A stretch of 62,672 nucleotides of DNA, filler included, from Asterionella formosa (Eukaryota): the NCBI GenBank assembly GCA_002256025.1. It is 29 parts of 29 records of this genome, joined end to end, with 100 filler letters (N's around TTAATTAATTAA, not from the genome) between each part and the next. Parts side by side here need not be neighbours in the genome. Positions count along the whole stretch, not along the records: positions 56,302 to 58,358 come from NKIB01000526.1; 28 more parts are not named here. One strand, written 5' to 3'. Below the pieces are notes generated by a model, which worked only from the letters and a program-made list of their open reading frames with translations, was not told where the DNA came from and did no database searches. This document shows positions 229 through 60,515 of this stretch, piece after piece. Position 1 is the stretch's first letter. Every line of letters begins with the position of its first letter. Both the position numbers and the translations under genes were made by a program.

Positions 229-2074
229 GTGCAGCTGAAGGCCGCAGCCACCAATCAAGGAACCAACGAACCCCATGAGCGCCACCCCAGACGCGATGAC
301 AAGCGGCAGCTTAGCGAGTGGACACGGCAGCACCGGTGGGAGAGGGCGAAGGGACAACCGTCCGCACGGGAGCCGTGGTGGCCGGGCAAGGACACAAGCG
401 ACAAGCAACAACCGTGGCATTTTAAGGGCAGCACAGAGGGCATGAACGGAAACGTATTTGAATGCTATGAAGAACAAAGTGACAGACGCCAGTACGCCAA
501 AACGTTAGAAGCTCTAGACGGATATGTGAGGAAAACACTGAAGTACTCTGAAGACCTTGCCCCTTTGTTTGCCGACACCATGGCGGTTCCCATGGTAGAC
601 ATGCCAGATGACCTAGATGACGATGCAGGACTGACCATGAAAATGATTTTCGCAGAAGAAGTAAAAACGTATGTCAAGCGCAATCATACCCTGAAGAGCA
701 ACCTAGCAACAGTGTATGCGGTGATTTGGGGCCAGTGTAGCGATGACATGAAGGCAAAGGTCAAAACACACGATGACTACAAGGACAAGACTGCCAACAA
801 CGATTGTTTTTGGCTTCTAAAACAGATCAAGTCGATTACTTTACAGTTCGATCAGAGCAGGAATGGTTTCATTGCACTTTTGGACGCCCAGACCAGTTTC
901 CTCAATTGTCGTCAGTTACAAGGACAGTCCGCAGAAGACTACGTCGAGTGTTTGCGAGGATGGGTTGAGACCATCGAGTACCATGGCGGCACTGTGGCAG
1001 CAAATTACAAACTGGTACCCTTCCAGGATCAGGACGGGAATGGGCGTAGCACTGAAGAGCGAAAGGAGATCGCATGTGAACGCACCCTTGCAATCGCTCT
1101 GATTCGAAGTGCTGACCCCACCAGGTCTGGCACCCTCATCACTGACCTGTCAAACCAGTATGCAATGGGAATTGACCAGTACCCCACCAATTTGTTGTCA
1201 GCCCAAAGCCTTCTCGTCAACTACAGAACTCCAACGAACACCAGCGTCAGGACAGATACACCACGCCCCCAGCCGACTAGAAGCCCTGAGGCCAGTGCAA
1301 TGACGTTTACACAACGTGGCGAAATCGCAGGCAATAATGGAGTGTTACATGATGGCATCATCTGTTACAACTGCCAAAGCCAAGGACACTACGCGGGAGA
1401 CTGCCCTGACAGGCAGGAATCGACGACCTCAGGCACTACATTGACGCAGTATGCATACATGCTTGCACAGACCGGCGACCCTGGGATTGATCCTAAGTGG
1501 ATCCTTCTCGACTCGCAGTCGACAATCTCCGTGTTCAAGAACGCCGACATGCTCAGCAACATCCGGCGTAGCTCTTACGTACTCAGGGCGCTCACAAATG
1601 GAGGCTACCAGGACTCCAACATGGTAGGAGATTTTCCCAACTTGGGTAAGGTTTGGTACAACCGTGAATCAATTGCCAACATCCTCTCCCTTGCTGAGGT
1701 GCGCAAGGTATGCCGCGTCACCATGGACTCTGCGGACGAGCCCGCGATGCTTGTCCATAGACTCGATGGAACTGTGATGAAATTTCTTGAGCACCCCTCA
1801 GGACTGTATGTGTTTAGTTGTAACAACGATACTAACGACAGTGTTACAGGTTATACCATGCTATCCACAGTAGCAGAACAGAAGAAACTATTCTCACGAT
1901 GTGAAATTCAATCAGCCAATGCAGCCAGAGATTTGTATAGAAAGATTGGGCGGCCTGCCGAGGCGGAATTCCAATCCATCCTACGGAACAACTTGATTAG
2001 AAATTGCCCAGTGACGCCAGACGACGCCAAGCGCGCCCTCATTATTTACGGTCCAGACATCGCTGCCATAAAAG
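229..2074 (+). mobile_element. Ty1/copia (CoDi-like) gag-protease-pre-integrase polyprotein, 3' truncated by contig end
   Basis: Long open ORF with CCHC knuckle CYNCQSQGHYAGDC, aspartic-protease-like WILLDSQST and GAG-pre-integrase-like ARDLYRKIGRP...LIRNCPVT. Confidence 0.9.
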
Positions 2075-2174: not shown

Positions 2175-3139
2175 TTCTAATCAGAATCATTCTATAACTA
2201 TAGCTATGTGGACAGTAGTCTGTTACGCACATTTTCGTATCTCCTTCTATGCTGAATCGAAATAGTAGATGTAGTATCATGTGAGAATTGAAAATGTCAA
2301 CAAGAACAAGTAGAATGTGTTGGTTTACGGGTTGATTGGCGAGATTGTCATGCTGAAGTGGACGAAACGGATATACTTTGTGCGCTGTGTGCGGAAACAT
2401 TACGAGTTCGAATGGTTTCTTCTCTCCGGTAAACTCTTAATTGAATGATTATGAACAAAGGTTCACTGCACACGACGATTACTCGAAGATATAAAGATCA
2501 CTTGACCAACAAATTGAAGACATTATCGCAAACATTCATTCCCCTTGTCATCGCTAGTATTTCGTTGTTGTTGCAAAAATCGGAGTGATGACGGATGGAA
2601 ATCACGAGCAAAATTACATTGCTTGAACTGGTACATTATCCTACCAAGAAATTCGAATACAGGAATCAAATAGAAACAATACATATAATAATTAAATATA
2701 TGTAGTCAAAAGGGTTACTATTTAAACTACAAAGGCATTTATCAAAATTATTAGATGATATAACGAAAAATTATGATCAGATGATCAGATGATCACAATC
2801 CTATGATGCATCATGGAAATATGATAGTTTTTATTTGCAGACGACAGTCAGCCGCCTTGTGGCCATACTTGCCACACTTACGACAGTCACCTTTGAACTT
2901 CCCTTTTGTGTAGAAGGCCTGTTCACTCTTTGTTCTTGCTAGTCGTTTTGACGTCATCCCGGACATATAGATAGTAGTAGTCCCGGATGTCTGTCTTAAT
3001 CTCTTCGACTGTTAGCATGTTGTGCGCCAGGCCGAACCTTCCTACTACCAAACTCTTGTAGCTTTCCGGTAGGTTGTTGATCATGTCTGCCATATAGGCA
3101 CCATCCGAAACGGCGGAGCTCGTATTGCCCGCTGTCGGG

Positions 3140-3586
3140 GTTCTCGTTTTCTCCTAGAGTGCAATTCGTCCATTGGTGGGAGAAGGCAATGACATTCGCC
3201 ATATTGCCTGACTCATACGTTGAAATGAGCTTGTCCCATGCTTCTTTAGCATTGCTGTTAGGAAACTTGGCACTTCTTGCATTATTTACGTGTCAAAATG
3301 GCCCACTCTGGCATGCCATTATCAGACTTGCTTAAACAACTGTGTTGCTCCTTCGGATGCGTCTCTCGTCAGCATCCGAAAACACGATCGTATCGCCCTT
3401 TAGGTCTTTCTCTCCTCTTGGTAGTTCATCACTGTTAAGTATTTCTTGAAAGTTCTTGTAGCACGCGTATGCGAGAAACTTCGCTTTCCACATGTGCCAT
3501 TTAGCATCTTGCCCATCGAACATTGGCAACCTCACTGACGTGTCTTCGTCACTTCCCATTGTTCCTGAGTAGCCTGTGGCCTTCAA
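3140..3586 (-). pseudogene. Degenerate copia gag N-terminus
   Basis: VRLPMFDGQDAKWHMWKAKFLAY resembles copia gag N-termini; the frame breaks at 3332 and gag-like remnants (NAKEAWDKLISTYE) continue downstream. Confidence 0.6.
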
Positions 3587-4346
3587 AGGTGCGCTTTAAA
3601 GCGTGTTAAAAGGTCTTGTACTCCTTCCCGTCTGACGGGTTCCTCTTACATAGGACTTACCTGTTATACCACTAGTGTTGTTATCTTCTTTCTGCTGCTA
3701 GCCTTCGTGCTAGCTTTCGCTATTGACCTTACTCTGTCAATTCTCACTGCTTCTTAATTTTAAGCTTAAACTAAAACTAAGTTTCAATCCCATTCATTAC
3801 ACTTCGTGAACCTGTTCTTCGTGTTCCATTTTCGTTGATGTGAACCTTCTTCTGATTGATCTAAGACATCAATCTCGTTAGCAAGCTTCTTGACATGGGA
3901 GCGCACCATTTGACTTATTGGACTATAATCGAGTCCACAGTCCTTGTGACTCACTATAGCCATTGATGCTATATTCTTGACATTCTCATACCGGTAGTTA
4001 TGTTTACTAATCAAGTGCCAGTAATACAAATTGCATGACACTAAATGAACGTAATGATGAATTCTTAAATATATATATACAGGCATATGATTGATTTGAG
4101 CGACAACAAGGAATTTTGCACTGTACATAGAGATGCATACCGGTACTGCAAATGCATGCAAATGAATAATTGTATAATAGGCATTTGGGTACCAGCTATA
4201 AACTGAGAGTACCAGTTAGTCAACGTTAAGAACTCCTTCTTCCGACNNNNNNNNNNNNNNNNNNNNNNNNNNNNNNNNNNNNNNNNNNNNTTAATTAATT
4301 AANNNNNNNNNNNNNNNNNNNNNNNNNNNNNNNNNNNNNNNNNNNN

Positions 4347-5259
4347 TTATGACGTCTATCTTTTGTGCTACTTGATTCTTCGAAATGAATTTCTTGGGAA
4401 CTACTCTCCTATTCAGCTCTTCTTCTTCCATATGCTCAATGTCTATCAATGTATTGATCCGGTTAAGCAATATCGCCCTCACAAAAGGAAATAGTATATT
4501 TTTAATCTCCGGTTCATCGGCGGGAACAACGTACATCCTTTTGGAGGGCAGCACAGTTATTGTCCTAACGGCAATTCGTGAGATGTTTTCAGTGGATTCT
4601 TTCATCGCCTTGGTTTGATCTTCTTTGGCGATTATATTCTTCAGTCGCTCTGTAACATCTTGTATATATTGGCGATGGAATGTGAGCTGAATTTCGTTCC
4701 GAATTGGCAATTGTTGTGTGTTACCTGAAGTCCTTGTTTCTTTCCCATTACTTGACCCAGTCAGCATATTTTCTTTGGTTCGGTAACCAAATCGAAAGGT
4801 ACGATCCAAGTGCAAGTCAAATGGCCGATAGAGGTGCTTTCCCCACGCGAGAGTCATATGATCGCGATACGTCCCCCCGCAGATCAGGCATGTGTGCTTG
4901 GAACGTGGACAATGTGGATGCAAAAGCTGTAGAAGGCTTCCTGGTCGAATATAAATGAATTTTCGACCACCCTTGCCTTCATATGTGCAGTCTTTCTGTA
5001 GAAAATGGCAAATGCTGTGCAATGCAGCGGATGGAGCGTTCCAAATATAGAATGAACAGGCCTTTCCCGATGGCGAATGGAAAGGATTATTTGTGGTCGT
5101 TGTGGAGTTCGCTTGCTTGCCTATTTTCCTCAAGGAGGTTTTGACACTGCTGCTGTGCCTGATACCATTGGATGCAAATGTTCGATCGAATATTGCAAAT
5201 ATAAGAAGGATTGAACGGAACCACGCCCTTGCTGTCACCATGCCGGCGGGATTGATCAA
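4347..5259 (-). CDS. Hypothetical protein with N-terminal hydrophobic segment, 3' truncated
   Basis: About 300 open codons; AWFRSILLIFAIFDRTFA could be a signal peptide; no family recognised. Confidence 0.45.
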
Positions 5260-6516: not shown

Positions 6517-7500
6517 ATGAGTGTGGGTAGATGATATTTGTGGTGGAAGTAGCAATTTTACTAGGATTCCTTCCATATTCAGATCGATTCTTTTGTGAAA
6601 GTCCAGTGTAGATTTCTGTACAATAAACGAGTAAATCATCAGTCCATTGATCAGTAAGACCATTTGAAACTGAACTTTCTTCCCTCACACTTTTTTGATA
6701 AGTGGTTTCCCCCCAATGTCGACAAAATCAGTAGAATGACAAATATCGTTCTCTGAAATTTCATGTGTAGTATCTGGATTGAAACCCAAATATTTTTGTT
6801 GCACTCGGAATTTTCCTTTCAGCACCAAGAAGCAAAATGCGTCTGTACTGGCATTGATCAGCGAACCAACAAAACTTGATTGCAATTCACACTGTGCCCG
6901 AAGATCTAGTTGAAATTTGGTCACACCAGATTTGTCTCTTTTTAAAAATGGTTCTCCACAGCTTGTCCTGCCTATAAAATACACTGGAGCAAGAACATCA
7001 CGCCAGAATTGGTATCCATGGCTTCCCCTGTCAATGTCCTCTGACTGCGCAAAACGATAGATCGTGAACGCCCACCTAATAAAGTCATCAATATCCATAG
7101 TCTGGAAGTTATATACTGTTAGACCAGCTGGTGTGTCATGAATTATGTTAGCATTTTCAAGTTGAAACATATTTGATAAGAATATAATCACCGACTCAAA
7201 ACATCATGCTTTCAGAGCATCTCCTGCCCTGCAAGAACTTACCTAAGATTCCTTTAAATTGATTATTCAATATGCACATTCTGACATTCTCTCGACATTT
7301 TAATGCGCATGCCACCATATGTTGATTTGATGTAATCTAAACGTGCCTTGTTGGTACGTCCAATGGTCTGATTAATCGGAAGTAATGCATCAGAACCATT
7401 CCATATGAAATCGGCAAGCTCTGGGTCACTCTCCACTTCTTTGCCTAACTCCGGTTTCACTGTGAATAGCCGAGTTAGGCAACATTGGGCAAACGAATCC
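6517..7500 (-). pseudogene. Fragmented unknown coding sequence
   Basis: Consecutive protein-like minus-strand ORFs (7263..7460, 6685..7191, 6461..6688) in different frames; no family recognised. Confidence 0.3.
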
Positions 7501-7954
7501 TGGCTGTTTGTGATTGGAAATGCCTTTCATACTACTTGGACCAGATAGGGCGGGATGTTTGATTCTCTTTTGGGACCAGAAAAAAGCACATTAGATTTAT
7601 ATTCTGTTTTACAGTACCTGCAATTCGCGAACTATAACCTCAAACTTACATGTTCATAGCAAAACTTCTTGGTCTTGAAAATAAAATTCACAACCTTTGT
7701 TACAATTTATGGATCGGATCAATTTTAGCTAAGTGGGAACGACGTTCTGATAAGGTTGCTGAAATTGAAGATTCTTGATAACCTCGTATGGACAAGCGAG
7801 TTTTGAACCGAATTACGACCTTTGTAGTCTTTGAGTTGCCCAATCGATAATATCCTTTGGCAAGTGCAAACATGTTTTTCCCTCAGTTTGTCATCTACTT
7901 GTTGGTCCGTGCCATTAGAAAATTTATGGTATCATATAATAAATTAACAGATGG

Positions 7955-8586
7955 CATTCTGTTGCTCGCTTACTACTCCGACTACCCTCTTTCAGTTTTA
8001 CAATCATATGATCCTGAACTAGGATGATTTACTGTCCCCCTGCAGTAGCAACAGTCATGAGCATATGGTGTTCTGTTGCTCGCTTACTACACCGACTATT
8101 TTTTTCAATTTTACGATCATGCAATCCTAAAAATATGATGATTTAATGTCCCGCTGCTGTAGCAGCAGTCGTGAACATATGGTGCTCTGTTGCTCGCTTA
8201 CTACTCCGACTATCCTTTTTCAATTTTATGATCATACGGTCCTAAAACTATGATGATTTACTATGGTCCCACTGCAGTAGCAACAGTCATGAACATATGG
8301 TGTTCTGTTGCTCGTTTACTACCTGGTACTGTGACTACCTGGTACCCCCAGTATATCACTTCCTTCCTGCTACTAGTACTCTGTATATATATGATAAAAT
8401 GTTATTGTCGTATGGTGTACTGGTACACATGAAGAACTCCCGCCCAAAAAAGGGGCTTAAACAATTTGCTACCAAAATCCTTGCATATAAATAATGATAC
8501 AAATGGGTTATGACTTAGTACACCAATTGAATGGTCTAAATAATTAGTTCCAACGGAGGTAGAAAATATTGATGCAAACATATTTC
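7955..8586 (+). repeat. Dispersed repeat family R1, copy 1: about 3-4 tandem ~115-bp subunits followed by a unique body
   Basis: TTCTGTTGCTCGCTTACTAC recurs at about 7957, 8070, 8186 and 8302; the body (CCCGCCCAAAAAAGGGGCTTAAACAATTTGCTACC) also occurs at 46320 and, reverse-complemented, near 20600-20640. Confidence 0.9.
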
Positions 8587-19530: not shown

Positions 19531-21150
19531 TCCGGACCTCATTGTCCCTGCCTGTTGTCAACAACAATGCGTGAGCTGACAAGCCATACTAGCATTTAGG
19601 TACACAACAAGAACACACTCACCATTCAACTGTATTGCAGAGTTCTTTCATTTGAGTCGAGGATTCAATTGACATTGCAGCAACCTATGCAGTTACAGAA
19701 ACAATGAGAAGAAATGATTTGTTAGCAAGTAGTCATGTTACATTGAAACAACGACACGCAATTCCATCGTATCCTCTTGCTTCACTTACCACAAATCAAT
19801 GCAACTGATGCATAAGTCTGTAATAGTAACTTGTCAGTAAATTCTTGAATAAGTAAGTTTCGAGTATCCAATGTTGTTGAATAAAACTTACCGGTACATT
19901 TTTGTCATCTTAGCTAACTTTGAGAGAAGGTAAACGTTTTGTCAGCTTTGTTCCAACAGAAGTGAATAGGTCCAACAAGCGACAAGAGCACTTACGCAAT
20001 TTTGTTTTGTTTAACATTGGTGATCCCCAACAAGCGAAACGAGCTGTTTAATCAACTGAGAAAAAAGGAAATGTGGCTGCGTTTAGTTAACAATTTTTTG
20101 TTGTCCTGCCTCCCAACGATTGTCATCCAAGTAGCTACCACATTGATGGCTTCATTATCTTAAACATTCTCCATCCTTCGAATGCGCAATGTGTCGAAGT
20201 CACAATGTTTTTCGTTATGTATTGCGAAAATTTTCTTTTCTTTTAATGTGCTTTACTACGACGTATCTTTTCATGAAGCAGCAGGCATTGTTTGTTAACA
20301 TGACAGAACGATTTCAAAAATATATATGCCATACATATAGAAATAAAATTTGTAAATATATATATATATATATTAAGTGTTATACATTTATAAAATTCAA
20401 ACGCGCTCTCGATATGGAACATCTGATATGGTTTTGATGATCATACTTGCATATACATAATTCGAAAATACTCAATGCACTATATGTCCATTGTTTTCCA
20501 CGACTACATGTACCGGAATTGTTTCTGAAATTTGTTTGCATCGATATTTTCTACGTCCGTTGAAACTAATTATTTAGACCGTTAAATAGCTGCCAGGGTT
20601 TTGGTAGCAAATTGTTTAAGCCCCTTTTTTGGTCGGGAGCTCTTCATGTGTACAGGTACATCATATGACAGTAACGATATATCATATATATACAGAGTAC
20701 TAGTAGCAGGTAGTAAGTGATATACTGGGGGTAGTCGGAGTAGTAAACTAGCAACAGAACACCATATGTTCAGGACTGTTGCTACTGCAGTGGGACAGTA
20801 AATCATCATAGTTTTAGGATCGTATGATCATAAAACAAAAAACAAAAAGAACACCATATGTTCATGACTGTTGCAATTACATTGGGACAGTAAATCATCA
20901 TAGTTTTAGGATTGTATGATCGAATAACTATAATTCAATAGAACACCATATGTACAGGACTGTTGCTACTGCATTCGAACAGTAAATCATCAAAGTTTTA
21001 GGATTGCATGATCGTGAAACTGAAAAGTGGTACCGGTAGTCGGAGTAATAAGCAAGCAATAGAACACCATAGTAAATCATCATAGTTTTAGGATTGTTTA
21101 AATAGAACACCATATGTCTATGACTGCTGCTACTACAGCGGGACAGTACT
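19531..21150 (-). repeat. Repeat family R1, copy 2 (reverse orientation)
   Basis: Colinear reverse complement of about 45880-47393, including the tandem subunits at 20740-21150. Confidence 0.92.
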
Positions 21151-21169
21151 GGTAAATGAATTTAAGATC

Positions 21170-21561
21170 ATCGAACTTTAAGGAAGACAACGACAACAGC
21201 TGGTCGTGTGGCCGTTGCTGGTCCACTTTTAATGGCCGAAGAAGGAAGCGACGAAAAGATCACCATTACGAGCGGAACGAGAGAAATCGCTTACGACGCC
21301 AAGTCTGGACGATTCTTTGAGAATAAAATGCAGGAAGAAGAATGCATTCCTGACGAGGAATACTGTGTCGTCGATCCGGAAAGTGGGGAACTCATTTGTC
21401 TCACAGTAGCCGAAAAGGAGCGTATCTTTCTGGACGCGCTTCAGTCCTACTATGCCACTGGAAGGCAAATGCTCAAGGATGACGAGTTTGACCTATTGAA
21501 GGAAGATTTGCAATGGAACGGATCTGACATGGTTGTCATGAATGTTTCTTCCTGTTTGTGA
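21170..21561 (+). pseudogene. PGRL1: PGR5-like 1 (PGRL1) N-terminal fragment
   Basis: EYCVVD...LTVAEKERIFLDALQSYY...MLKDDEFDLLKEDLQWNGSDMVVMN resembles the PGRL1 conserved region; no signal peptide upstream (R1 abuts it) and homology stops abruptly. Confidence 0.7.
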
Positions 21562-22387
21562 TCAATATCCCATCGATCCATTCGTTCTTGCAAATGTNNN
21601 NNNNNNNNNNNNNNNNNNNNNNNNNNNNNNNNNNNNNNNNNTTAATTAATTAANNNNNNNNNNNNNNNNNNNNNNNNNNNNNNNNNNNNNNNNNNNNAAT
21701 TTCTCTCGCAGCTGTTGAAATTGATTTTCAATGTCATCAAGACTGGATTGAATTCATCTCCGTCCCCATGGGAAGAATTGATACAAAAAATCTTGTCGTT
21801 GAAAGTCGGGAATAAGTTGGGCGTGCTGTCAATCGCTCTTGCCTTTGATGAAATTGATTATTAATCTCATCGAAAACTTGATTGATTTCACCTCCATCGC
21901 TATGGGGACTGATATGAACTTGTCGTTGAAAAGCGGGAATGGGTTAGGCTCAGTCCATAGCATGGGCAAACAAACGATGCATGTTCCTCTGACTGTCTTT
22001 GTTTAGGAGTGAAAAGTCGCTCTTGGAGAGCAATACCTTGTTGAGAAAGTTCTGTTGGCCTGATTCGACGAACAAAGGCTTGCTTCTTGAGAAAAGCTGA
22101 AATTTCTATGTCTCTGTCTCTTTTTTTAAGTTCACTCATGGCATCATCCTTGTCATCAGGAGATGAGGAGAGGTAAGCCGACATGCTGGTCAGTGACTGA
22201 TACTGGTGAAATTAAGGAACTCATGTGGATAATGAACAAGAGGCCGCATAACACGCAAGAGGATGCATCGCTATGAAAATATAACTGTTATAAATTAAAG
22301 TTAAATTTCTATAAAATGTCAGATGACTAATCTAAAATATCTTGATTATCAGAGCGTGACGACGTTATTATGTATCAAATCGCCAAA

Positions 22388-28196: not shown

Positions 28197-30262
28197 GTGC
28201 TCAAATCTTTGCAAATGAAGCGTATTTCGTAAAAGCGTACCCGATGGAGAAGAAGTCTGGCGCGGGTTTGGCGCTCCGACAATTCATTCGTGATTACGGA
28301 GCACCTGAGTACCTCACGTCTGACAGGGTGTCCGAACAGACTGGACCGAAAACGGAATTCATTAAGGAAGTATGGGATTGAACATCACGTGAGCGAAACT
28401 AAACAGCATCGACAGAATCGAGCGGAGTCAGTTATTCGTGAAGTGAAAAAGCGATGGTTTCGACAAATGATGAAGCGTCGGGTTCCGAAGCGTTTGTGGG
28501 ATTACGGAATCGTGTGGGTGTGTGAAACAATGTCTCTCACTGCTAACTCATCATTTGCGCTGGAAGGTCGGACTCCTATAGAACAAATCACAGGCGAGAC
28601 ACCCGACATATCCGAATACTTGGATTTCGTGTTCTACGATTGGGTGTGGTACAAGGATAATGCAGGGGTTGGCGAAAACATGTTCGGGCGCTGGCTTGGG
28701 GTGTCTCACCGAGTCGGTAACCTAATGTCATATTGGATTCTAACCATTGCTTGTCGCGTTATCTCACGCACTACAGTGCAGCGTATCACTCACCTTGAAC
28801 TGACAACTAGCGAGGTCAATGACAGATGCAAGGAATACAATGAGAGGATAAAGGAAATAATACGTGACTACAACCACCAAAATGCAGGCGACGAGGAGGA
28901 GCAACAATTGCAGGATTGGGATGAATACTCGGATCTGCAGGACGACTCAGTAATGGCGAAGAGATAAACAATGTTGTGAGCGATCACCAAATACCAAATG
29001 CCGATGACACTTTCACGCCCGTTTTTTTCGAGGATACATACCTCAACAAAGAGATAGCGATAGCGAGGGGCGCTGGAGATGACAACGACGGTGTTCAGTT
29101 TGGCAGAGTCACCAAGAGATTGCGCGACGCTGATGGTAGACCTATCGGCAAGGCTCACGAAAATCCTTTGCTTGACACCAGAGAGTATGAGGTCGAGTTC
29201 TTTGACGGACACACAGAGGCATTGTCTTCTAACCTTATTGCTCAGAATTTGTTTTCACAGATAGACGAGGAGGGCGAACGACACGTACTTCTCAACGACA
29301 TTATCGATTATAGGCGGAATGCGACGGCACTCGACAAAGAGGACGCGTTCATCACAATGTCTAACGGTGTCAAGCGGCGGAGACAGACGACTCGAGGGTG
29401 GCAACTCCTGTGCCAATGGAGGGACGGGAGTACCACTTGGGTCGCACTTAAGGATGTGAAGCAATCGTACCCCATACAGGTGGTGGAGTACTCAATTGCT
29501 AATCGTATTGATGAAGAGGCAGCGTTCGCGTGGTGGGTGCCGACTCTTCTAAAGAAACGGGACCGAGTCCTAGAAAAGGTAAAGTCTAAGTATTGGCAGC
29601 GAACTCATAAATACGGTATACGGATACCGAAGTCCGTCGAAGAGGCGTTAACGATTGATAAAGCCAATGGCAACACATTATGGTGGGACGCCATCTGCAA
29701 GGAAACGAAAAACGTGCGACCGGCATTTGAAAAGTGGGAAAAGCGAGAGGGAGACCTTCCGCCAGGGTACCAAAAGATAAGGTGTCATTTCGTGTTCGAC
29801 ATCAAAATGGGCGAAAACTTTCGGCGTAAGGCGAGACTAGTTGCTGACGGCAGCCGGACGGAAACGCCCGCAGCCCTGACGTATTCGTCAGTTGTGTCGA
29901 GGGACTCAGTGCGCATTGCCTTATTGGTTGCTTCATTGAACGACTTACAACTTCTTGCTTGCGATATTCAAAACGCTTATCTAACCGCAGATTGCAGATA
30001 GAAAATTTACATAATTGCAGGGCCGGAATTTGGGTCGGAAGCGGGAGCTACCATGGTGGTGAAGAAAGCGCTGTATGGGCTCAAATCTAGCGGTGCGGCA
30101 TTCAGAGCGCATCTCGCAGAAACCCTCCATGATTTGGGTTACTTGCCCACGAAAGGGGACCCTGATGTATGAATTCGACCGGCAGTAAAACCGGATGGGT
30201 TTGAGTATTACGAAATGATTCTTGTATATGTTGATGACATTCTTTGCATTTCAGCGCAGCCT
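28197..30262 (+). mobile_element. CoDi-type Ty1/copia pol fragment (integrase C-terminus, chromodomain-like segment, RT), inactivated
   Basis: QNRAESVIREVKKRW, VPKRLWDY, GRWLGVSHRVG, FDIKMGENFRRKARLVA, TYSSVVSRDSVR, CDIQNAYL, KALYGLKSSG, VYVDD; premature stops at 28965, 29999 and about 30169. Confidence 0.93.
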
Positions 30263-30362: not shown

Positions 30363-32431
30363 AGGCTGCGCTGAAATGCAAAGAATGTCATCAACATATA
30401 CAAGAATCATTTCGTAATACTCAAACCCATCCGGTTTTACTGCCGGTCGAATTCATACATCAGGGTCCCCTTTCGTGGGCTAGTAACCCAAATCATGGAG
30501 GGTTTCTGCAAGATGCGCTCTGAATGCCGCACCGCTAGATTTGAGCCCATACAGCGCTTTCTTTACCACAATGGTGGCTCCCGCTTCCGACCCAAATTCC
30601 GGCCCTGCAATGATGTAAATTTTCTATCTGCAATCTGCGGTTGTTAGATAAGCATTTTGAATATCGCAAGCAAGAAGTTGTAAGTCGTTAAATGAAGCAA
30701 CCAATAAGGCCATGTGCACTGAGTCCCTTGACACAACTGACGAATATGTCAGGGCTCCGGGCGTTTCCGTCTGGCTGCCGTCAGCAACTAGTCTCGTCTT
30801 ACGCCGAAAGTTTTCGCCCATTTTGATGTCGAACACGAAATGACACCTTATCTTTTGGTACCCTGGCGGAAGGTCTCCCTCTCGCTTTTCCCACTTTTCA
30901 AATGCCGGTCGCACGTTTTTCGTTTCCTTGCAGATGGCGTCCCGCCATAATGTGTTGCCATTGGCTTTATCAATCGTTAACGCCTCTTTGACGGACTTCG
31001 GTATCCGTATACCGTATTTATGAGTTCGCTGCCAATACTTAGACTTTACCTTTTCTAGGACTTGGTCCCGTTTCTTTAGAAGAGTCGGCACCCACCACGC
31101 GAACGCTGCCTCATCATCAATACGATTAGCAATTGAGTACTCCACCACCTGTATGGGGTACGATTGCTTCACATCCTTAAGTGCGACCCAAGTGGTACTC
31201 CCGTCCCTCCATTGGCACAGGAGTTGCCACCCTTGAGTCGTCTGTCTCTGCCGCTTGACACCGTTAGACATTGTGATGAACGCGTCCTCTTTGTCGAGTG
31301 CCGTCGCATTCCGCCTATAATCGATAATGTCGTCGAGAAGTACGTGTCGTTCGCCCTCCTCGTCTATCTGTGAAAACAAATTCTGAGCAATAAGGTTAGA
31401 AGACAATGCCTCTGTGTGTCCGTCAAAGAACTCGACCTCATACTCTCTGGTGTCAAGCAAAGGATTTTCGTGAGCCTTGCCGATAGGTCTACCATCAGCG
31501 TCGCGCAATCTCTTGGTGACTCTGCCAAACTGAACACCGTCGTTGTCATCTCCAGCGCCCCTCGCTATCGCTATCTCTTTGTTGAGGTATGTATCCTCGA
31601 AAAAAACGGGCGTGAAAGTGTCATCGGCATTTGGTATTTGGTGATCGCTCACAACATTGTTTATCTCTTCGCCATTACTGAGTCGTCCTGCAGATCCGAG
31701 TATTCATCCCAATCCTGCAATTGTTGCTCCTCCTCGTCGCCTGCATTTTGGTGGTTGTAGTCACGTATTATTTCCTTTATCCTCTCATTGTATTCCTTGC
31801 ATCTGTCATTGACCTCGCTAGTTGTCAGTTCAAGGTGAGTGATACGCTGCACTGTAGTGCGTGAGATAACGCGACAAGCAATGGTTAGAATCCAATATGA
31901 CATTAGGTTACCGACTCGGTGAGACACCCCAAGCCAGCGCCCGAACATGTTTTCGCCAACCCCTGCATTATCCTTGTACCACACCCAATCGTAGAACCCG
32001 AAATCCAAGTATTCGGATATGTCGGGTGTCTCGCCTGTGATTTGTTCTATAGGAGTCCGACCTTCCAGCGCAAATGATGAGTTAGCAGTGAGAGACATTG
32101 TTTCACACACCCACACGATTCCGTAATCCCACAAACGCTTCGGAACCCGACGCTTCATCATTTGTCGAAACCATCGCTTTTTCACTTCACGAATAACTGA
32201 CTCCGCTCGATTCTGTCGATGCTGTTTAGTTTCGCTCACGTGATGTTCAATCCCATACTTCCTTAATGAATTCCGTTTTCGGTCCAGTCTGTTCGGACAC
32301 CCTGTCAGACGTGAGGTACTCAGGTGCTCCGTAATCACGAATGAATTGTCGGAGCGCCAAACCCGCGCCAGACTTCTTCTCCATCGGGTACGCTTTTACG
32401 AAATACGCTTCATTTGCAAAGATTTGAGCAC
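30363..32431 (-). mobile_element. Second near-identical copy of the CoDi pol fragment (reverse complement of 28197-30262)
   Basis: Same ORFs, same inactivating stops and same end points; differs by a 3-bp insertion and scattered SNPs. Confidence 0.93.
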
Positions 32432-37233: not shown

Positions 37234-38469
37234 ATGAAAGCACTAACTTTTGTTTCGTCGCTTCTTTATATCCCGATAATGAAATCTCTTGCCCTTGCGC
37301 TCAGCTCAGTCTTTGTACTTCAATCTCTCGAAACAGGACTAGCGTTCGCTCCGAAAAATCCACGCCAACGAACATGCTCGCAACAAAAACGCCTTCAGGC
37401 CCAGCGAGGAAATCCAGAAGATATTTTCGCGGCGGTCCATCGCAAGGAGTACGAAATGAAGCAAGTTAAGGCGCAGCATACGAGCATTTCGGACCCCGTG
37501 AGAGTGGCCATGTCGTATGGTCAAGAAAGTGTGGGAGCCATGACTCTTGCCAAGGCACTGCGACGAGTTTATGACGACGAATTCAATCCAGCGAATCCAA
37601 ATGCCAAGGAAGTGGACCCAGAGACGGAACAGCGAGCGACCAAATTGAAAGATTTGGGTATGGCGGAAATGGGAATGCGCCGGGGGTCGTTCATTGTGGA
37701 CATTAAGCGCAAGTCCCTGAGTCGCACAGGTGAACCGAAATTTTGCAATTTCGATGATGCTGGATTGGTTGCGGAAGCCATGGTTCGATTAGGAGCCGAT
37801 GCAGTCTTTGTCAATGTTGATTATGCGGGATATGGAGGCGACTTTTCAGAATTAAAGTCTGCAATTCGAGCGGTTAGAAAGGTATCGAAGACGGCAGCTG
37901 TAGTTATGAAGGACATTGTTGTGGACGAAATACAGTTGGGGTTGGCCAAGGAGGCTGGTGCGGATGGGATCCTTTTGATAGCATCTGTGTTAGGACCTGC
38001 ACTCGATAATTTTTTGAATCTCGCAACGACTATCGGTCTGGAAACTATTGTTGAATGTCACACCTATAACGAGGTGCAAAGGGCACTGGAAGCGTGCGCT
38101 CAGATTATTCTCGTTAGCAACTACGACAGAGTCAACAATGTGTATCATCCAAATCAAGCGATTCAACTTGCCGGTCTCTTTCCTGGATCTGGAGGACCAA
38201 TAATCACGCTTGCATGTGGTGGTATTGATGATACGGAAGTTATGAAACGGCACTTGGCAGTGGGATACGACGGGGTGATAGTCGGAAAAGCAGTAATGGG
38301 TAGTCCGAGAGCTCCAGAATTCATCCGGGCGGTGAGAGATAGGACGTTGTTACCGGCGGAGTTCTCACAGTGGGGTCTAGAAGACGTGGAGTTTGATATG
38401 AATGGCCAGGTAATGGCAGGAACAAAAAAAGGAATTCCGAGCCTAGGCGACGACGACGTGTATATGTAA
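37234..38469 (+). CDS. trpC: Indole-3-glycerol-phosphate synthase-like protein, plastid-targeted, divergent active site
   Basis: IVDIKRKSLS, MKDIVVDEIQL..AKEAGADGILLIASVL, GLETIVECH, GYDGVIVGKAVM follow the IGPS TIM barrel; presequence ...ETGLA|FAP (ASAFAP-like). Confidence 0.8.
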   Translation: MKALTFVSSLLYIPIMKSLALALSSVFVLQSLETGLAFAPKNPRQRTCSQQKRLQAQRGNPEDIFAAVHRKEYEMKQVKAQHTSISDPVRVAMSYGQESVGAMTLAKALRRVYDDEFNPANPNAKEVDPETEQRATKLKDLGMAEMGMRRGSFIVDIKRKSLSRTGEPKFCNFDDAGLVAEAMVRLGADAVFVNVDYAGYGGDFSELKSAIRAVRKVSKTAAVVMKDIVVDEIQLGLAKEAGADGILLIASVLGPALDNFLNLATTIGLETIVECHTYNEVQRALEACAQIILVSNYDRVNNVYHPNQAIQLAGLFPGSGGPIITLACGGIDDTEVMKRHLAVGYDGVIVGKAVMGSPRAPEFIRAVRDRTLLPAEFSQWGLEDVEFDMNGQVMAGTKKGIPSLGDDDVYM

Positions 38470-45409: not shown

Positions 45410-45876
45410 NNNNNNNNNNNNNNNNNNNNNNNNNNNNNNNNNNNNNNNNNNNNTTAATTAATTAANNNNNNNNNNNNNNNNNNNNNNNNNNNNNNNNNNN
45501 NNNNNNNNNTCCCATTCATGATCCTTGGGACTTCGTCATGTTGTGGCGTTCTACCCCCTGCTCCATAACCACAGCCACCCTGTCGCGGGCCGTTGCAACG
45601 CACGATAATGGGTGATGTACCAAATTTTTCCGGTATTCCGGTAATAGAGGGGGGGCGGGGGGCAGCGCTTTGACCTTCACAGCCTCTCTACAGAGCTGCT
45701 ACAGAAAATAATAGGGAAAAACATAGTACCACCATAACCGTAGGTGCTACTTAAAGGTGCTGATAAAAGATATAGACGTACTACCTGGTACCGGTAGTAA
45801 CTCGTCAGCCTGGCTAATTATCGCGCCAGTTAAATTCATAAAAGCAATATTATGATAACTACCGGGTAGGTATGCC

Positions 45877-47569
45877 AGAACATATGGTGTTCTGTTGCTC
45901 GCTTATTACTCCGACTATTGGTTTTTAGTTTTACGATCATACAATCCTAGAGCTATGATGATTTACTGTCCCACGGTAGTAGCAACAGTCCTGAATATAT
46001 GGTGTTCTATTGGTTTTTAGTTTTACGATCATACGATCCTAAAATTATGATGATTTACTGTCCCGCTGCAATAGCAGCAGTCATAGACATTTCGTGTTCT
46101 ATTGGTTTTTAGTTTTACGATCATACAATCCTAAAACTATGATGATTTACTGTCCCACTGCAGTAGCAACAGTCCTGAACATATGGTGTTCTGTTGCTAG
46201 TTTACCGGCACTACTCCGACTACCCCCAGTATATCACTTACTACCTGCTACTGGTACCCTGTATATATATATGATACGTTGCTATTGTCATATGATGTAC
46301 CGGTACACATGAAGAGCTCCCGCCCAAAAAAGGGGCTTAAACAATTTGCTACCAAAACCCTTGCGGCATTTGAACGGTCTAAATAATTAGTTTCAACGGA
46401 CGTAAAAAATATCGATGCAAACAAATTTCAGAGATAATACCGGTACACGTACCGGTAGTCGTGGAAAACAATGGACATATAGTGCATTGAGTATTTTCGA
46501 ATTATGTATATGTGAGTATGATCATCTCAACCATATCAGATGTTCCATATCGAGAGCGCCTTTGAATTTTATAAAATGTATAACGCTATATATATATATA
46601 TATATATTTACAAATTTTATTACTATATTCATGGCCAATATATTTTTCAAATCGTTCTGTCATGTTAACAAACAATGCCTGCTGCTTCATGATAAGATAC
46701 GTCGTAGTAAAGCACATGACAAGAAAAGAAAATTTTTGCAATACATGACGAAAAACATTGTGACTTCGACACATTGCGCCTTCGAAGGATGGAGAATGTT
46801 TAAGGTAATATAATGAAGCCATCAATGTGGTAGCTACTTGGATGATAATCCTTGGGAGACAGGCAGCACAACAACAAATTGTTAACTAAATGCAGCCACA
46901 TTTCCTTTTTTCTCAGTTGATTCAACAGCTCGTTTCGCTTGTTGGGGAGCACCAATGTAAAACAAAACCAAATTGCGTAAGTGCTCTTGTCACTCCACTC
47001 GTTGGACCTATTCACTTCTGTTGGTATAAAGCTGACAAAACGTTTACCTTCTCTCAAAGTTAAGATGACAAAAATGAACCGGTAAGTTTTATTCGACAAC
47101 ATTGGATACCCGAAACTTACTTATTCAAGAATTTGGCTTACTGACAAGTTACTATAACAGACTTATGCATCAGTTGCATTGATTTGTGGTAAGTGAAGCA
47201 AGAGGATACGATGGAATTGCGTGTCGTTGTTTCAATGTAACATGACTACTAGCTAACAAATCATTCCTTCTCATTGTTTCTGTAACTGCATAGGACCATA
47301 AAACCAAACAACGGAATAGTCGGCGAAAAATGCTAGTATGGCTTGTCAGCTCACGCATTGTTGTTGACAACAGGCAGGGACAATGAGGTCCGGAATGGAA
47401 GTTGTTCTGGTAAGATTACTGCGCTATTTTGACGGCTATATGAGCAACGCTACTGATAACTCACACTGATCTTCCTCTACATTCAATTGACATTGCAGCA
47501 AACCCTTTCAGTGCAGGAGCATTCGCATGCCGTTCCGAATGAGCAGGCTTTATTTCATTAATGAAACTC
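45877..47569 (+). repeat. Repeat family R1, copy 3 (tandem subunits + ~1.3-kb body containing splice-like signals)
   Basis: Matches 7955-8586 and the reverse complement of 19531-21150; the stretch beyond about 47393 has no counterpart in this window. Confidence 0.88.
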
Positions 47570-55850: not shown

Positions 55851-56321
55851 CTTACATTGATGAAAGCATGACATTTTACCAAGGTCATATGAAACAAGGC
55901 AGTTTTCCTTGGCACGAAAAATTGTTATTGCAAGTGATATTTGATACATTACATACAGAAAACAAACAAAAGAAGATGAGTAAAGAAGTACATATGAATG
56001 TAACTGAGGGTATTTCAACAGAAATTGATTTCAAAGGAATGATTCCGGATACAAGGATGTTGCCTGGTGCGTCGCCTGATAATTTGGGAATATTGCCTAC
56101 CAAGATCCATTCACCATCCCTTCCTGTTAAAGTTCAGTTCTCTGCTTCATCATCAAATGGTCTATAACAGAAAAATCAAGTGTTCAATCTCTATTTGACA
56201 GNNNNNNNNNNNNNNNNNNNNNNNNNNNNNNNNNNNNNNNNNNNNTTAATTAATTAANNNNNNNNNNNNNNNNNNNNNNNNNNNNNNNNNNNNNNNNNNN
56301 NCCACCATCAGTTAGAAAACA

Positions 56322-58358
56322 ATGAAGGTTTGGTTCCAGTTGTTTCTTGGAAACGCAGGACTATTGCCAGTTTATGTCACGTTGACGGAGAATGATGTCA
56401 TTGCTGACTTGATGGAAGCTGTGAAGATTAAATGTGAAAATAGTCTGAGTGCCATAGATTCAGCGCAGCTCCGTGTGTACCCACCTGGAACTCAAGTGCC
56501 GGTTCCTGAGGGAGCTGATGATCCAACCATGGATCCTGGAGGTCTGGTTGTTCATCTGAATTGGGGAACTAGCAGCAAGCATGCGTTCGTGATCGTGGTC
56601 ATCCAACCTGATATTGGTACGTGTTTTGATCTCATGGAATACCCTCTATTGTATTGTAGGTCACAGCTCCTAATACTTACGTATCATTTCGTATCATTTA
56701 TCCCCTACAAATACTCGCTACTGTTGAAAAGACCAAGGAACGACGAAACGCCAGAAACCAAATGATGAGCAGGATGAAGCCTCGTCCTTAATATTGCTTA
56801 TAAAGGAGAAGCTCAACGTTCATTTCAAGCGCTTGGAGGCGGATCAGCAAGACCGAAGAATTCCAAAGACAATGCATATCTACATGATTGATCCGAAAAA
56901 AATTCCTTCTATTCCTACTTTACCTCCTTCTGACCCTACCTTACCTCTTTCTGATCCTACTTTACCCGCTTTTTCCCCAACTGATAGTTACTGGATTGAA
57001 AATGTCCAACAGGTGCGGTTCGACGACAGTGTTAGTAGGGGAATCTTATATCGCCCTAAAATTGTGAATGAAATGATGAAAGTTGTTGAAGATGCCTTCA
57101 AGAAAGAGCGTCGGACTGGAATCATGATCAAAGGACCGCATGGAATTGGCAAGTCGCACTCACTTGTCAACTTGGTTCGTAACCTGCAATATAACAGCAG
57201 CTGCAAGTACCTCGTAACTTTCATTCCAGACTGTCAAGAATGGAATGATGTTAACGAGTTGTACACTGCAATCTGTAGATCATTTGGTACTTCCTTACCG
57301 GCTCTCAAGTGGAAGATCTGTTCAAAAGATATCGAAAATTCAAGAGATCTGCAAACTTTTGTCAATGCCATTGACTTGATTCTTCAAGATATGAACAAGA
57401 AATGGGTCCTAGTCTTCGATCAGATCAACAGATTGTTTGCTCGACCAGAGCTAAACAAATCTGTTGATCTGGGCACTCTTCCCTTTTCTTTTCGTCTCAT
57501 CAACAGCATAATGAAGGGAGACCGCATTGTCTCCATCATTTCAGCTTCCGCAAACAACGAGATAGCCTACAGGGAAAGTCATCGAGGGTTTGTGGAGTAT
57601 GATCACCCTTGCCAAATGAATTTGGCAGAAATAGAGCTTGCTTTTAATGAAGTGGCTATACGGAATAACGGCAAAGAAATATTAAAGGTGACTGGTGGGG
57701 TGCCCTTACAGGTGAGGAATCTGATTTCCTTCAACTTTTCAATTGCCAATTATGAAAAGGGTGAATTGTGCTCAATTCTATTTTCTCTTGGAAAATTGCA
57801 TGACACGAAAACGGAATTGGAGTATAAGGGTATCACAGCATCAGCAGTTGGTTGCATTTTGTCAAATACAGGCCATGCCATGTATTATGACAGAAAGTAT
57901 TCAATTCCTGGCAAGAGGGAGGAGTTCACTCACTACGAGCCATTGTATCCTTTGGTGTTGGTAGCAGATCAAACCTTCTTTTGGGAGGACATACTGGAAT
58001 ATGTCGAAACACACGAGGCATCACTTTTGTTAGTCTGTGCCAATCTTAGTACAACAAATGACACTCGTGGTCGGATTTTTGAATTTCTTGTGATCAAGCA
58101 CTGTTCAACCAATGCAAATGTTACTTTTTTGAAAGGATTTTCGGCATTGAAGAAATGCAATCTCATTGAAACTTTTCCCCCAAAGAGTACCTTTCCCTCC
58201 AATGTGTTGCCAGAAATCATGAACGAAAATGGAATGTATGTTCCCCGAAACTCCAATTTTCCTGCAATTGATCTCATCTGGAAGTGTGGCGATAGTGTGT
58301 GTGGTGTCCAGGTACATGTTTCCAAACATCACAATGTACTGAAAAAGTTTACAGAAAT
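56322..58358 (+). CDS. Crinkler/CR-type effector, copy A: ubiquitin-like header + P-loop NTPase + REase-fold nuclease; join(56322..56616,56732..>58358)
   Basis: Header VWFQL..VIADLMEAVKIK..LSAIDSAQLRVY; a 115-nt GTACGT..AAAG intron joins the two ORFs in frame; Walker A GPHGIGKS, Walker B WVLVFDQIN; REase motifs RGRIFEFLV, NFPAIDLI, GVQVHVSKH. Confidence 0.8.
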
Positions 58359-58478
58359 NNNNNNNNNNNNNNNNNNNNNNNNNNNNNNNNNNNNNNNNNN
58401 NNTTAATTAATTAANNNNNNNNNNNNNNNNNNNNNNNNNNNNNNNNNNNNNNNNNNNNCCACCATCAGTTAGAAAACA

Positions 58479-60515
58479 ATGAAGGTTTGGTTCCAGTTGT
58501 TTCTTGGAAACGCAGGACTATTGCCAGTTTATGTCACGTTGAAGAAGAATGATGTCATCGCTGACTTGATGGAAGCTGTGAAGATTAAATGTGGTGACGA
58601 TCTTCAAGGTGTTTCCTCAGCGCGGCTCCGTGTGAACCCACCTGGAACTCAAGTGCCGGTTCCTGAGGGAGCTGATGATCTAATCCTGAGATCTGGAGGT
58701 CCGGTTGTTCATCTGAATTGGGGGACTAGCGACGACACTGCGTTTGTGATCGTGGTCATCAAACCTGATATTGGTACGTGTTTTGATCTCATGGAATACC
58801 CTCTATTGTATTGTAGGTCACAGCTCCTAATACTTACGTATCATTTCGTATCATTTATCCCCTACAAATACTCGCTACTGTTGAAAAGACCAAGGAACGA
58901 CGAAACGCCAGAAACCAAATGATGAGCAGGATGAAGCCTCGTCCTTAATATTGCTTATAAAGGAGAAGCTCAACGTTCATTTCAAGCGCTTGGAGGCGGA
59001 TCAGCAAGACCGAAGAATTCCAAAGACAATGCATATCTACATGATTGATCCGAAAAAAATTCCTTCTATTCCTACTTTACCTCCTTCTGACCCTACCTTA
59101 CCTCTTTCTGATCCTACTTTACCCGCTTTTTCCCCAACTGATAGTTACTGGATTGAAAATGTCCAACAGGTGCGGTTCGACGACAGTGTTAGTAGGGGAA
59201 TCTTATATCGCCCTAAAATTGTGAATGAAATGATGAAAGTTGTTGAAGATGCCTTCAAGAAAGAGCGTCGGACTGGAATCATGATCAAAGGACCGCATGG
59301 AATTGGCAAGTCGCACTCACTTGTCAACTTGGTTCGTAACCTGCAATATAACAGCAGCTGCAAGTACCTCGTAACTTTCATTCCAGACTGTCAAGAATGG
59401 AATGATGTTAACGAGTTGTACACTGCAATCTGTAGATCATTTGGTACTTCCTTACCGGCTCTCAAGTGGAAGATCTGTTCAAATGATATCGAAAATTCAA
59501 GAGATCTGCAAACTTTTGTCAATGCCATTGACTTGATTCTTCAAGATATGAACAAGAAATGGGTCCTAGTCTTCGATCAGATCAACAGATTGTTTGCTCG
59601 ACCAGAGCTAAACAAATCTGTTGATCTGGGCACTCTTCCCTTTTCTTTTCGTCTCATCAACAGCATAATGAAGGGAGACCGCATTGTCTCCATCATTTCA
59701 GCTTCCGCAAACAACGAGATAGCCTACAGGGAAAGTCATCGAGGGTTTGTGGAGTATGATCACCCTTGCCAAATGAATTTGGCAGAAATAGAGCTTGCTT
59801 TTAATGAAGTGGCTATACGGAATAACGGCAAAGAAATATTAAAGGTGACTGGTGGGGTGCCCTTACAGGTGAGGAATCTGATTTCCTTCAACTTTTCAAT
59901 TGCCAATTATGAAAAGGGTGAATTGTGCTCAATTCTATTTTCTCTTGGAAAATTGCATGACACGAAAACGGAATTGGAGTATAAGGGTATCACAGCATCA
60001 GCAGTTGGTTGCATTTTGTCAAATACAGGCCATGCCATGTATTATGACAGAAAGTATTCAATTCCTGGCAAGAGGGAGGAGTTCACTCACTACGAGCCAT
60101 TGTATCCTTTGGTGTTGGTAGCAGATCAAACCTTCTTTTGGGAGGACATACTGGAATATGTCGAAACACACGAGGCATCACTTTTGTTAGTCTGTGCCAA
60201 TCTTAGTACAACAAATGACACTCGTGGTCGGATTTTTGAATTTCTTGTGATCAAGCACTGTTCAACCAATGCAAATGTTACTTTTTTGAAAGGATTTTCG
60301 GCATTGAAGAAATGCAATCTCATTGAAACTTTTCCCCCAAAGAGTACCTTTCCCTCCAATGTGTTGCCAGAAATCATGAACGAAAATGGAATGTATGTTC
60401 CCCGAAACTCCAATTTTCCTGCAATTGATCTCATCTGGAAGTGTGGCGATAGTGTGTGTGGTGTCCAGGTACATGTTTCCAAACATCACAATGTACTGAA
60501 AAAGTTTACAGAAAT
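58479..60515 (+). CDS. Crinkler/CR-type effector, copy B; join(58479..58773,58889..>60515)
   Basis: Same architecture and intron as copy A; differs mainly in exon 1. Confidence 0.8.

Follow-up and report, generated by a model that had tools for sequence, protein, structure and literature searches.

A gene with the three-part build of a Crinkler-RHS (CR) protein lies on a 2057-nt contig (NKIB01000526.1) of the assembly GCA_002256025.1 of the diatom Asterionella formosa. The contig occupies positions 56302-58358 of the 62,672-nt stretch of DNA analyzed here, which we call the window. The product joins an N-terminal header, a P-loop nucleoside triphosphatase (NTPase), and a C-terminal domain with a predicted restriction-endonuclease (REase) fold. 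The gene is real, expressed, and spliced. We consider it quite probable that it is a diatom gene, present here as a copy cut at its 3' end, from a large and rapidly diversifying family built like Crinkler-RHS proteins, and our verdict is that it represents a divergent new member of that kind in a photosynthetic host.

The whole window consists of 29 contigs of 2053-2074 nt each, arranged roughly by falling length and joined through N44-TTAATTAATTAA-N44 linkers, which are not genomic sequence. Since the contigs are unplaced and spacer-joined, any feature that appears to cross a spacer is an artefact, and position 58358 is the end of a contig at which about 63 codons of the gene are missing. The reading frame is still open there, with no stop codon before 58358. 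A 4945-nt metagenome contig (L001), 96.9% identical across the whole 2057 nt, continues for 63 codons to a stop, as does the complete homologue P0004 (97% identical). The full spliced product is predicted to have about 703 residues. The parts of the gene, and a second copy on the adjoining contig, are as follows.

56302..56321, + strand: 5' untranslated stub at the contig start, identical to the sequence upstream of the ATG in L001
56322..56616, + strand: exon 1 (ATG at 56322; 98 codons and 1 nt), a 98-residue header, likely of Crinkler type, that ends FVIVVIQPDI
56617..56731, + strand: intron of 115 nt, phase 1, from GT (56617) to AG (56730-56731), supported by RNA joints
56732..58358, + strand: exon 2, the in-frame continuation of exon 1, which runs open to where the contig stops, about 63 codons short
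56734..56913, + strand: charged linker with a KRQK patch and a conserved helix, LIKEKLNVHFKRLE (sequence and alignment)
56914..56982, + strand: three PTLPxSD-like proline-rich repeats of 7 residues (sequence)
57031..57633, + strand: ORC/Cdc6-like P-loop NTPase (Pfam, NCBIfam, profile match to PDB, conservation)
57133-57156, + strand: Walker A, GPHGIGKS (sequence)
57403-57423, + strand: Walker B, WVLVFDQ, with DQ and not DE (sequence)
57634..58056, + strand: helical and beta region between the NTPase and the nuclease-fold core; only its last part is modelled (helices and a beta-hairpin, model residues 1-77)
58057..58358, + strand: predicted REase-fold core, cut by the contig end (AlphaFold model of P0004, Foldseek, VIA-align)
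58066-58083, + strand: RGRIFE (sequence motif)
58081-58083, + strand: conserved residue E450 (family alignment)
58255-58272, + strand: NFPAID (sequence motif)
58270-58272, + strand: conserved residue D513 (family alignment)
58303-58323, + strand: GVQVHVS (sequence motif)
58309-58311, + strand: conserved residue Q526 (family alignment)
58315-58317, + strand: conserved residue H528 (family alignment)
58327-58329, + strand: conserved residue H532 (family alignment)
58459..60515, + strand: second gene copy (exon 1, 58479-58773; intron, 58774-58888; exon 2 from 58889)

A preliminary description of this DNA had proposed two open reading frames (ORFs) joined in frame by a 115-nt GT-AG intron at 56617-56731 and had looked to RNA sequencing to check it. 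Both the frame and the RNA joints bear the proposal out. A joint that skips exactly 115 nt, from GT to AG, occurs in one contig from each of the RNA runs X3, X2, and X4, which come from two studies, and in no contig of the DNA run X1. The shorter sides of these joints measure 27, 19, and 19 letters, where a minimum of 30-31 is advised, so that a single joint is weak evidence, whereas three runs that agree on the predicted site are not. Summed RNA depth within the intron is a small part of that beside it (50.7 versus ~4500 in X3, 4374 versus 98601 in X2, and 342 versus 26248 in X4), while the depth of the DNA run shows no such collapse and is highest over the intron. The database proteins P0103 and P0104 have the identical exon-exon junction. 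Expression is seen in polyA and metatranscriptome runs from two studies. More broadly, 20 of 24 listed sequencing runs, from 14 studies mostly of lakes or other freshwater, contain at least half of the sampled words of the gene, and 10 of these runs are RNA.

Retention of the intron in the window copy meets a stop codon at 56763-56765. On L001 (498-2723) the unspliced intron stays in frame, which gives a 741-residue ORF with a hydrophobic insert; in light of the stop in the window copy, this open frame is probably due to chance. With regard to a hidden RNA gene, the intron had no match in Rfam, and its RNA folding was no better than that of shuffled sequences (z 0.46). ORFs of 78-118 aa on the minus strand over the gene were taken as chance frames, as they lie inside a conserved coding frame.

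Architecture of the predicted protein

The header of about 98 aa, the PTLPPSD-repeat linker, and every motif quoted in the preliminary description are present where it had placed them. When the header was compared with Pfam, the sole family found was PF20147, the Crinkler N-terminal domain, which matched four of the six tested sequences that include a header (E 0.011-0.063); in every case residues 7-55 aligned to profile positions 6-52. In a language-model feature search of the Atlas with the header, all 30 matches were clusters that carry PF20147. The top scores were 0.94, 0.93, and 0.93, with 211, 205, and 199 of 256 features in common, from Mucoromycota; a match of this type is a lead and not an alignment, and all Atlas clusters have at least 50 members. 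An AlphaFold model based on 32 header variants has the order beta, beta, alpha, beta, (alpha), beta. Every row printed by Foldseek for this model was ubiquitin, a ubiquitin-like (Ubl) domain, RA, or FERM F1 (best E 9.6e-3), and 50 of the 50 rows printed by VIA-align were beta-grasp proteins (ubiquitin, Ubl, RA, PB1, or FERM-F1; Z 7.3-6.1, none strong). The model and both structure searches agree, at low confidence, on the beta-grasp fold by which the header was to be judged, and we regard that predicted fold as supported. Taken together, Pfam, the Atlas, and the model make kinship of the header with Crinklers likely but not proven.

The absence of an LFLAK motif, also remarked on earlier, holds for the literal motif, but the place of that motif is occupied: QLRVYPP (residues 49-55) falls on predicted strand 3 (residues 50-53), with only an L-x-V-Y pattern in common. 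Passages of PMC5289972 put LxLFLAK on strand 3, and passages of PMC3790786 locate LxLFLAK or LxLYLAR 40-65 residues from the start. At its end the header reads FVIVVIQP (residues 89-96), with the intron immediately after it, and other variants have FVIVAPD. In Crinklers, an end motif of the HVLVVVP or HVLVxxP type, to which this run is similar in kind, marks the swap point, as set out in passages of PMC5289972.

Between the header and the NTPase, the charged linker might serve in nuclear targeting. The number of PTLPxSD repeat units that follow it varies among copies, as is evident from joints that lead back 42 and 54 nt (56913-56966) in the RNA runs X2 and X4.

The identification of a P-loop NTPase from GPHGIGKS and WVLVFDQ proved sound. 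AAA_22 matches residues 126-243 of the exon-2 product above its Pfam cut-off (27.9 bits, cut-off 27), and AAA_16, ATPase_2, NACHT, and nSTAND families match more weakly. Among NCBIfam models, seven of eight family members are nearest to Orc1/Cdc6 TIGR02928 (E 9.3e-10 to 1.8e-3), at 17.2-37.9 bits and so below its cut-off of 181.3 bits, and the similarity is confined to the P-loop half. A family profile searched against the PDB matched only P-loop stretches, with the mitoribosomal protein mS29 best (E 1.7e-4); the same database searched with a single protein sequence gave no match. G134, G139, S141, and D229 are invariant in the family alignment, and Q230 is nearly so. From the architecture of the family, a winged helix would be expected in the region that follows (57634-58056).

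For the C-terminal third, which has no Pfam family, the fold was modelled on the last 245 residues of P0004 together with 65 relatives. The model is confident (predicted local distance difference test 87.8, predicted template modelling score 0.87). Its core runs helix 83-100, strands 141-143, 155-159, and 162-168, helix 177-187, and strand 195-202, that is, alpha-beta-beta-beta-alpha-beta, and model residues E91, D154, Q167, and H169 sit on the expected elements of a restriction-endonuclease core. In the numbering of the gene product, the first helix carries E450, strand 2 has D513 at its start, and strand 3 bears both Q526 and H528; these four and H532 are each kept in at least 90% of 66 sequences. 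The top Foldseek rows were Can2, R.BspD6I, Nt.BspD6I, Ecl18kI, EcoO109I, McrC, BamHI, and BglII (best E 1.7e-2). VIA-align, run over 48161 chains, gave Card1 at Z 7.0 (root-mean-square deviation 3.3, 128 residues aligned) and R.BspD6I2 at Z 6.8 (4.0, 127 aligned), followed by LlaBIII (6.3), McrC (6.2), and FokI (5.7), with 20 chains at Z of at least 5. Judged by title, nucleases make up 19 of the top 20 rows; of all 50 rows, about 40 are restriction or related nucleases and about six are unrelated proteins. We take the enzymes named here to be of the PD-(D/E)xK fold. It is the consistency of the matches, and not any single score, that makes the modelled REase fold well supported, in keeping with the fold that the preliminary description had put at this end of the protein.

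A header, an NTPase, and an REase in this order were described earlier as the architecture of CR proteins, and this agrees with Zhang et al. 2016 as summarized in passages of PMC5289972, where an NTPase followed by an REase domain is the commonest CR C-terminus. Beyond domain order, the gene resembles the Crinkler/CR proteins of oomycetes, chytrids, and Rhizophagus that combine a Ubl header with NTPase, HTH, and REase in several respects: the hydrophobic first strand of its header is like a signal peptide, a motif lies on strand 3 at residues 49-55, the hydrophobic end of the header (xVxVVxxP-like) may correspond to theirs, headers and bodies are swapped, and the family is expanded and includes pseudogenes. 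It differs from them in its photosynthetic diatom host, in an intron at the header-body boundary, in a header that is also found on a HECT ligase, and in a D...QxH site in place of D...(D/E)xK, as well as in the header scores and motif considered below. Trypanosomatid RHS proteins belong to the same CR class and are likewise multicopy with many pseudogenes (passages of PMC5289972), but no retroelement insertion was seen in the diatom copies examined. Prokaryotic pairs of an ORC/Cdc6-like or ATPase_2 NTPase with an Hjc or REase nuclease have the same two-enzyme core and are proposed as ancestors of CR C-termini in passages of PMC5289972; unlike the diatom gene, they have no Ubl header, intron, or eukaryotic expansion. 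The closest structural matches (Card1, Can1/Can2, McrC, R.BspD6I, and the FokI cleavage domain; Z 7.0-5.7, 111-131 residues aligned) are only 7-12% identical, have other partner domains, and carry the canonical lysine where the diatom protein has histidine.

Atlas neighbors of the body fit the CR picture drawn in passages of PMC5289972, again as a lead and not as an alignment. They are unnamed Mucoromycota clusters (0.97), two clusters of 725 aa in which 88% of members carry PF20147 (0.92), and an archaeal cluster that has ATPase_2, Hjc, and AAA_22 (0.90).

Several results weigh against the reading of the gene as one of a diatom family built like CR proteins. No header reached the PF20147 cut-off of 24.6 bits (14.5-16.9 bits), and two of the six header-bearing sequences, P0003 and P0103, had no Pfam match at all. 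The header model is of low confidence (predicted local distance difference test 59.1, predicted template modelling score 0.46), Foldseek gave no match at E ≤1e-3 for either the header or the C-terminal model, and the literal LxLFLAK (or LxLYLAR/K) motif is absent from the header. For the C-terminal domain, VIA-align gave no chain at Z 8, and middling Z values are common. Its site reads E...D...QxH, with histidine for the canonical PD-(D/E)xK lysine and glutamine for the acid, and with these replacements any nuclease activity is putative and the domain may do no more than bind DNA. The body is linked to bona fide Crinkler or RHS proteins in feature space and not by alignment, Pfam scans gave no RHSP match, and no terminal inverted repeats were found on L001. 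Finally, nothing in these data speaks to secretion, delivery, a host to deliver into, toxicity, defense, or mobility.

Family size, exchange of parts, and variation of the header

The gene belongs to a large family. A word-indexed protein search found 99 relatives among 6441 candidates, of which the two named ones come from the diatoms Amphora coffeaeformis and Attheya sp. and some others are from contigs 1.1-1.8 Mb long. When a profile built from 66 members was searched against 1.84 billion representatives, it matched 826 at E ≤1e-3, 490 at 1e-10, and 247 at 1e-30, and the best 150 of the 826 were all close family. The cluster of P0004 at 90% identity has 38 members, and 5864 contig pieces of one DNA run align to this 2-kb stretch. 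Two database entries stand apart. P0087, a family member labelled as a protein of a Gaiellaceae bacterium metagenome-assembled genome, is on a 1124-nt contig that is probably eukaryotic and was mis-binned; P0101, in which NusA-type domains accompany a short 82%-identical stretch of this gene, is probably from a chimeric contig.

Most database proteins begin just past the header-body junction, which we read as an upstream exon missed by gene callers. Where N-termini are present, they can differ on the same body: P0126 has two SAM domains, P0130 a different Ubl-like start, and P0029 a coiled coil. Conversely, the same kind of header (64% identity) is found on a 911-residue protein that ends in a HECT ubiquitin ligase (E 5.6e-88; P0108 and P0295). 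In P0295 and P0108, low-complexity and repeated segments stand between the header and the HECT E3 ligase domain. P0260 combines the HECT-type form of the header with the NTPase-type intron.

The two window copies illustrate where variation is concentrated. Their contigs have equal length and ends and differ at 40 nt, 39 of which lie within contig positions 85-303, in exon 1, and one in the remaining ~1750 nt. The intron is identical between them, and the headers differ at 21 of 98 residues, compared with 1 of 541 in the bodies. As a control, the contigs at 28197-30262 and 30363-32431, which are 98.7% identical in opposite orientation, have 26 differences in 2069 nt. These are also clustered, though far less densely than those of the header copies, so that clustering by itself is not special. 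Neither control contig has a Pfam match in its long ORFs, and the pair probably represents alleles or a recent duplication.

Headers vary in a mosaic fashion. Of 46 candidates from a short-protein search, 45 were header clusters with 60-93% identity to this header, and in most of them the frame of exon 1 continues into the same intron, which is well conserved. Eight variable segments, with 3 to 19 forms each, occur in 39 combinations among the 42 full-length headers; neighboring segments are partly linked and distant ones shuffled. Variable positions lie mostly in predicted loops, strands are conserved, and the intron is better conserved than the header exon. Part of this mosaic could consist of assembly chimeras. 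Four ORFs (P0241, P0246, P0251, and P0263) start with MVPTTIMSTT(I/M)KVWF, in frame from the upstream leader into the header; as judged from sequence, a tandem unit could be translated through in these copies.

It is conceivable, though distinctly unlikely, that the header exon is a recognition module shuffled as a cassette, with more header units than enzyme bodies kept by the diatom. The unit would be ~496 nt long, from the 5' leader through exon 1 and the intron to ~50 nt into exon 2, and would be partly in tandem. Recombination or gene conversion among units would yield a combinatorial set of ubiquitin-like surfaces, which would be spliced onto at least two enzymes, the NTPase-nuclease and the HECT ligase. 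Such a system would generate germline diversity in a conflict protein, by a logic like that of antigenic-variation cassettes or polymorphic toxins. This proposal is prompted by the 39 combinations among 42 headers, the location of variation in loops, the better conservation of the intron than of the exon, a backward joint, and raised DNA depth. The joint, in RNA contigs from X3 and X4 (two studies), connects 56783 back to 56304 across 16 intervening nt; of the final 10 of these, 9 agree with the genomic DNA that precedes the header in L001 (460-500). Over 56302-56784 the summed DNA depth is 2-6 times higher than downstream, and the fall comes at 56785, although depth is not the same as copy number. 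Joint and depth may reflect orphan or tandem header units of ~496 nt. Against the proposal, the joint is absent from the DNA run, and short-read assemblies can produce chimeras. Moreover, the ratio of nonsynonymous to synonymous substitution between the two window headers is 1.04 (9 synonymous and 30 nonsynonymous differences), and a ratio of about 1.0 means that positive selection on the header is not shown.

Possible roles and competing explanations

If the protein works as its parts suggest, the NTPase would be a nucleotide-dependent switch or DNA clamp, for which the DQ in Walker B suggests slow turnover. It would license the nuclease-fold domain to bind or cut DNA, and the header would be an exchangeable module with a variable surface that directs where, or with whom, the enzyme acts. 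As for biological role, a conflict protein of the diatom, directed against parasites, viruses, or other strains, and a selfish multicopy element would each account for somewhat less than half of our expectation, the former for slightly more, with a small remainder for other roles.

The finding bears on how Crinklers are used as markers. Passages of a 2025 freshwater metatranscriptome paper (PMC11800578) describe them as 'known solely from parasites' and suggest them as a sign of parasitism. With a large family of Crinkler type present and transcribed in a photosynthetic diatom, such a marker would mislabel diatom transcripts, and the expression of a gene built in this way in a freshwater diatom means that this kind of protein is not confined to parasites. 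Among the papers listed for Crinkler together with diatom terms, 15 of 52 in one search, none described such genes in a diatom genome, but Zhang et al. 2016 may already list stramenopile algae. In bioRxiv 10.1101/2025.10.10.681168, the Crinklers are those of an oomycete parasite and not of the diatom. For diatom biology, the gene points to an unstudied, abundant, and fast-varying nuclease-like family that may bear on conflicts between diatoms and chytrids, oomycetes, or viruses, or on genome instability. The CR field gains a lineage with an intron at the header-body swap point, a header common to a HECT ligase, and a nuclease site in which histidine replaces the canonical lysine.

The alternative that survives best is a purely selfish element, in which the gene is the coding part of a transposon-like or self-amplifying unit and the NTPase-nuclease serves its own spread and not the diatom. 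We hold this to be possible, if on the unlikely side. Many copies and variants would be expected of such an element, and the contigs that carry the copies are short, unplaced, and broken at identical points. Decay is also apparent. On L001, an intact copy (478-2723) is followed after ~400 nt by a headerless degenerate copy in tandem (3122-4452, 75-86% identity), which has three frame changes and has lost ~250 nt across the Walker B region; its first segment is nearer to the paralogue P0005. Two further loci, L002 and L003, also require frame changes. The metagenome scan found three loci, so the view of genomic context rests on one 4.9-kb contig. Prokaryotic NTPase and REase pairs are tied to transposable elements in passages of PMC5289972 summarizing Zhang et al., and passages of a 2026 paper (PMC12957317) interpret AACRNL, a Crinkler-like gene of the ADP-ribosyltransferase type in free-living animals, as a selfish genomic element. 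AACRNL resembles the diatom gene as a Crinkler-type gene in non-parasitic eukaryotes and differs in its ADP-ribosyltransferase body, degenerate Ubl, and animal hosts; that text contains neither 'diatom' nor 'NTPase', and 'REase' occurs once, in a general list of CRN C-terminal domains. On the other hand, no inverted repeats were found on L001, and the copy there has no transposase, reverse transcriptase, or integrase beside it. Across 66 diverse members, the active-site-like residues and the body as a whole are strongly conserved, and the gene is expressed in polyA and metatranscriptome runs. An elaborately variable header, moreover, has no obvious use in transposition.

We give little credence to an immune receptor like those of the NLR or STAND families, in which the NTPase would oligomerize on sensing an invader and the nuclease would be a suicide or defense effector. 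The variable header, the weak Pfam matches to NACHT, nSTAND_NTPase5, and AAA_16, and fold neighbors that include the defense nucleases Card1, Can1, Can2, McrC, Cap4, and the Avs3 nuclease domain would suit such a receptor. However, NACHT reaches at most 20.7 bits against a cut-off of 26.7, no repeat-type sensor domain (LRR, TPR, or WD40) was found C-terminal to the NTPase, and the NTPase is closest to Orc1/Cdc6 and mS29 rather than to STAND families. PADLOC found nothing in four of eight proteins and only weak, scattered matches in the rest (best E 0.0016). The latter were PDC-S20 and mad8 on P0002, BrxF on P0286, mad8 on P0012, and Csn2 and an Argonaute-associated REase model (E 0.0038) on P0130.

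That the contig derives from a chytrid, oomycete, or other fungal parasite or contaminant of the culture, and not from the diatom, seems very unlikely to us. Crinklers are best known from parasites, the 2-kb contig with the gene is unplaced, the probable source sample carries the label of an algae metagenome, and the nearest Atlas clusters are all from Mucoromycota. However, as the Atlas holds only clusters of at least 50 members, its taxa are not the range of the family, and the full protein search gave the relatives in Amphora and Attheya and on contigs of megabase size noted above. On another contig of the same assembly, the enzyme indole-3-glycerol-phosphate synthase (IGPS; 37276-38469, + strand) begins with a signal peptide followed by GLAFAP, which we take to be a heterokont plastid-import motif; to judge by its sequence, this N-terminus looks like a heterokont plastid-targeting presequence. 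The G+C content at third codon positions of the Crinkler-type gene (0.43-0.45) is inside the range of the other window genes, including IGPS (0.37-0.58), and the sequence turns up again in runs from 14 studies, mostly of lakes or other freshwater. Diatom-named relatives, IGPS, base composition, and freshwater recurrence thus make a parasite origin unlikely.

A housekeeping replication or repair factor, in which an ORC/Cdc6-like loader is fused to a repair nuclease, is scarcely credible, since, despite the Orc1/Cdc6 similarity in seven of eight members tested and the repair nucleases NucS, Hjc, and VRR-NUC among the fold matches, the Orc1/Cdc6 scores lie far under the curated cut-offs (at most 37.9 against 181.3 bits) and hundreds of divergent copies, pseudogenes, and swappable N-termini are a misfit with a single essential gene.

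Other contigs of the window also contain repeated or element-like sequence. Those at 19531-21597, 45510-47569, and 6517-8586 have stretches of 79-90% identity in common, which form a dispersed repeat, and an open frame of 618 residues at 220-2074 (+ strand) has a CCHC zinc knuckle and may encode a retroelement Gag-like protein.

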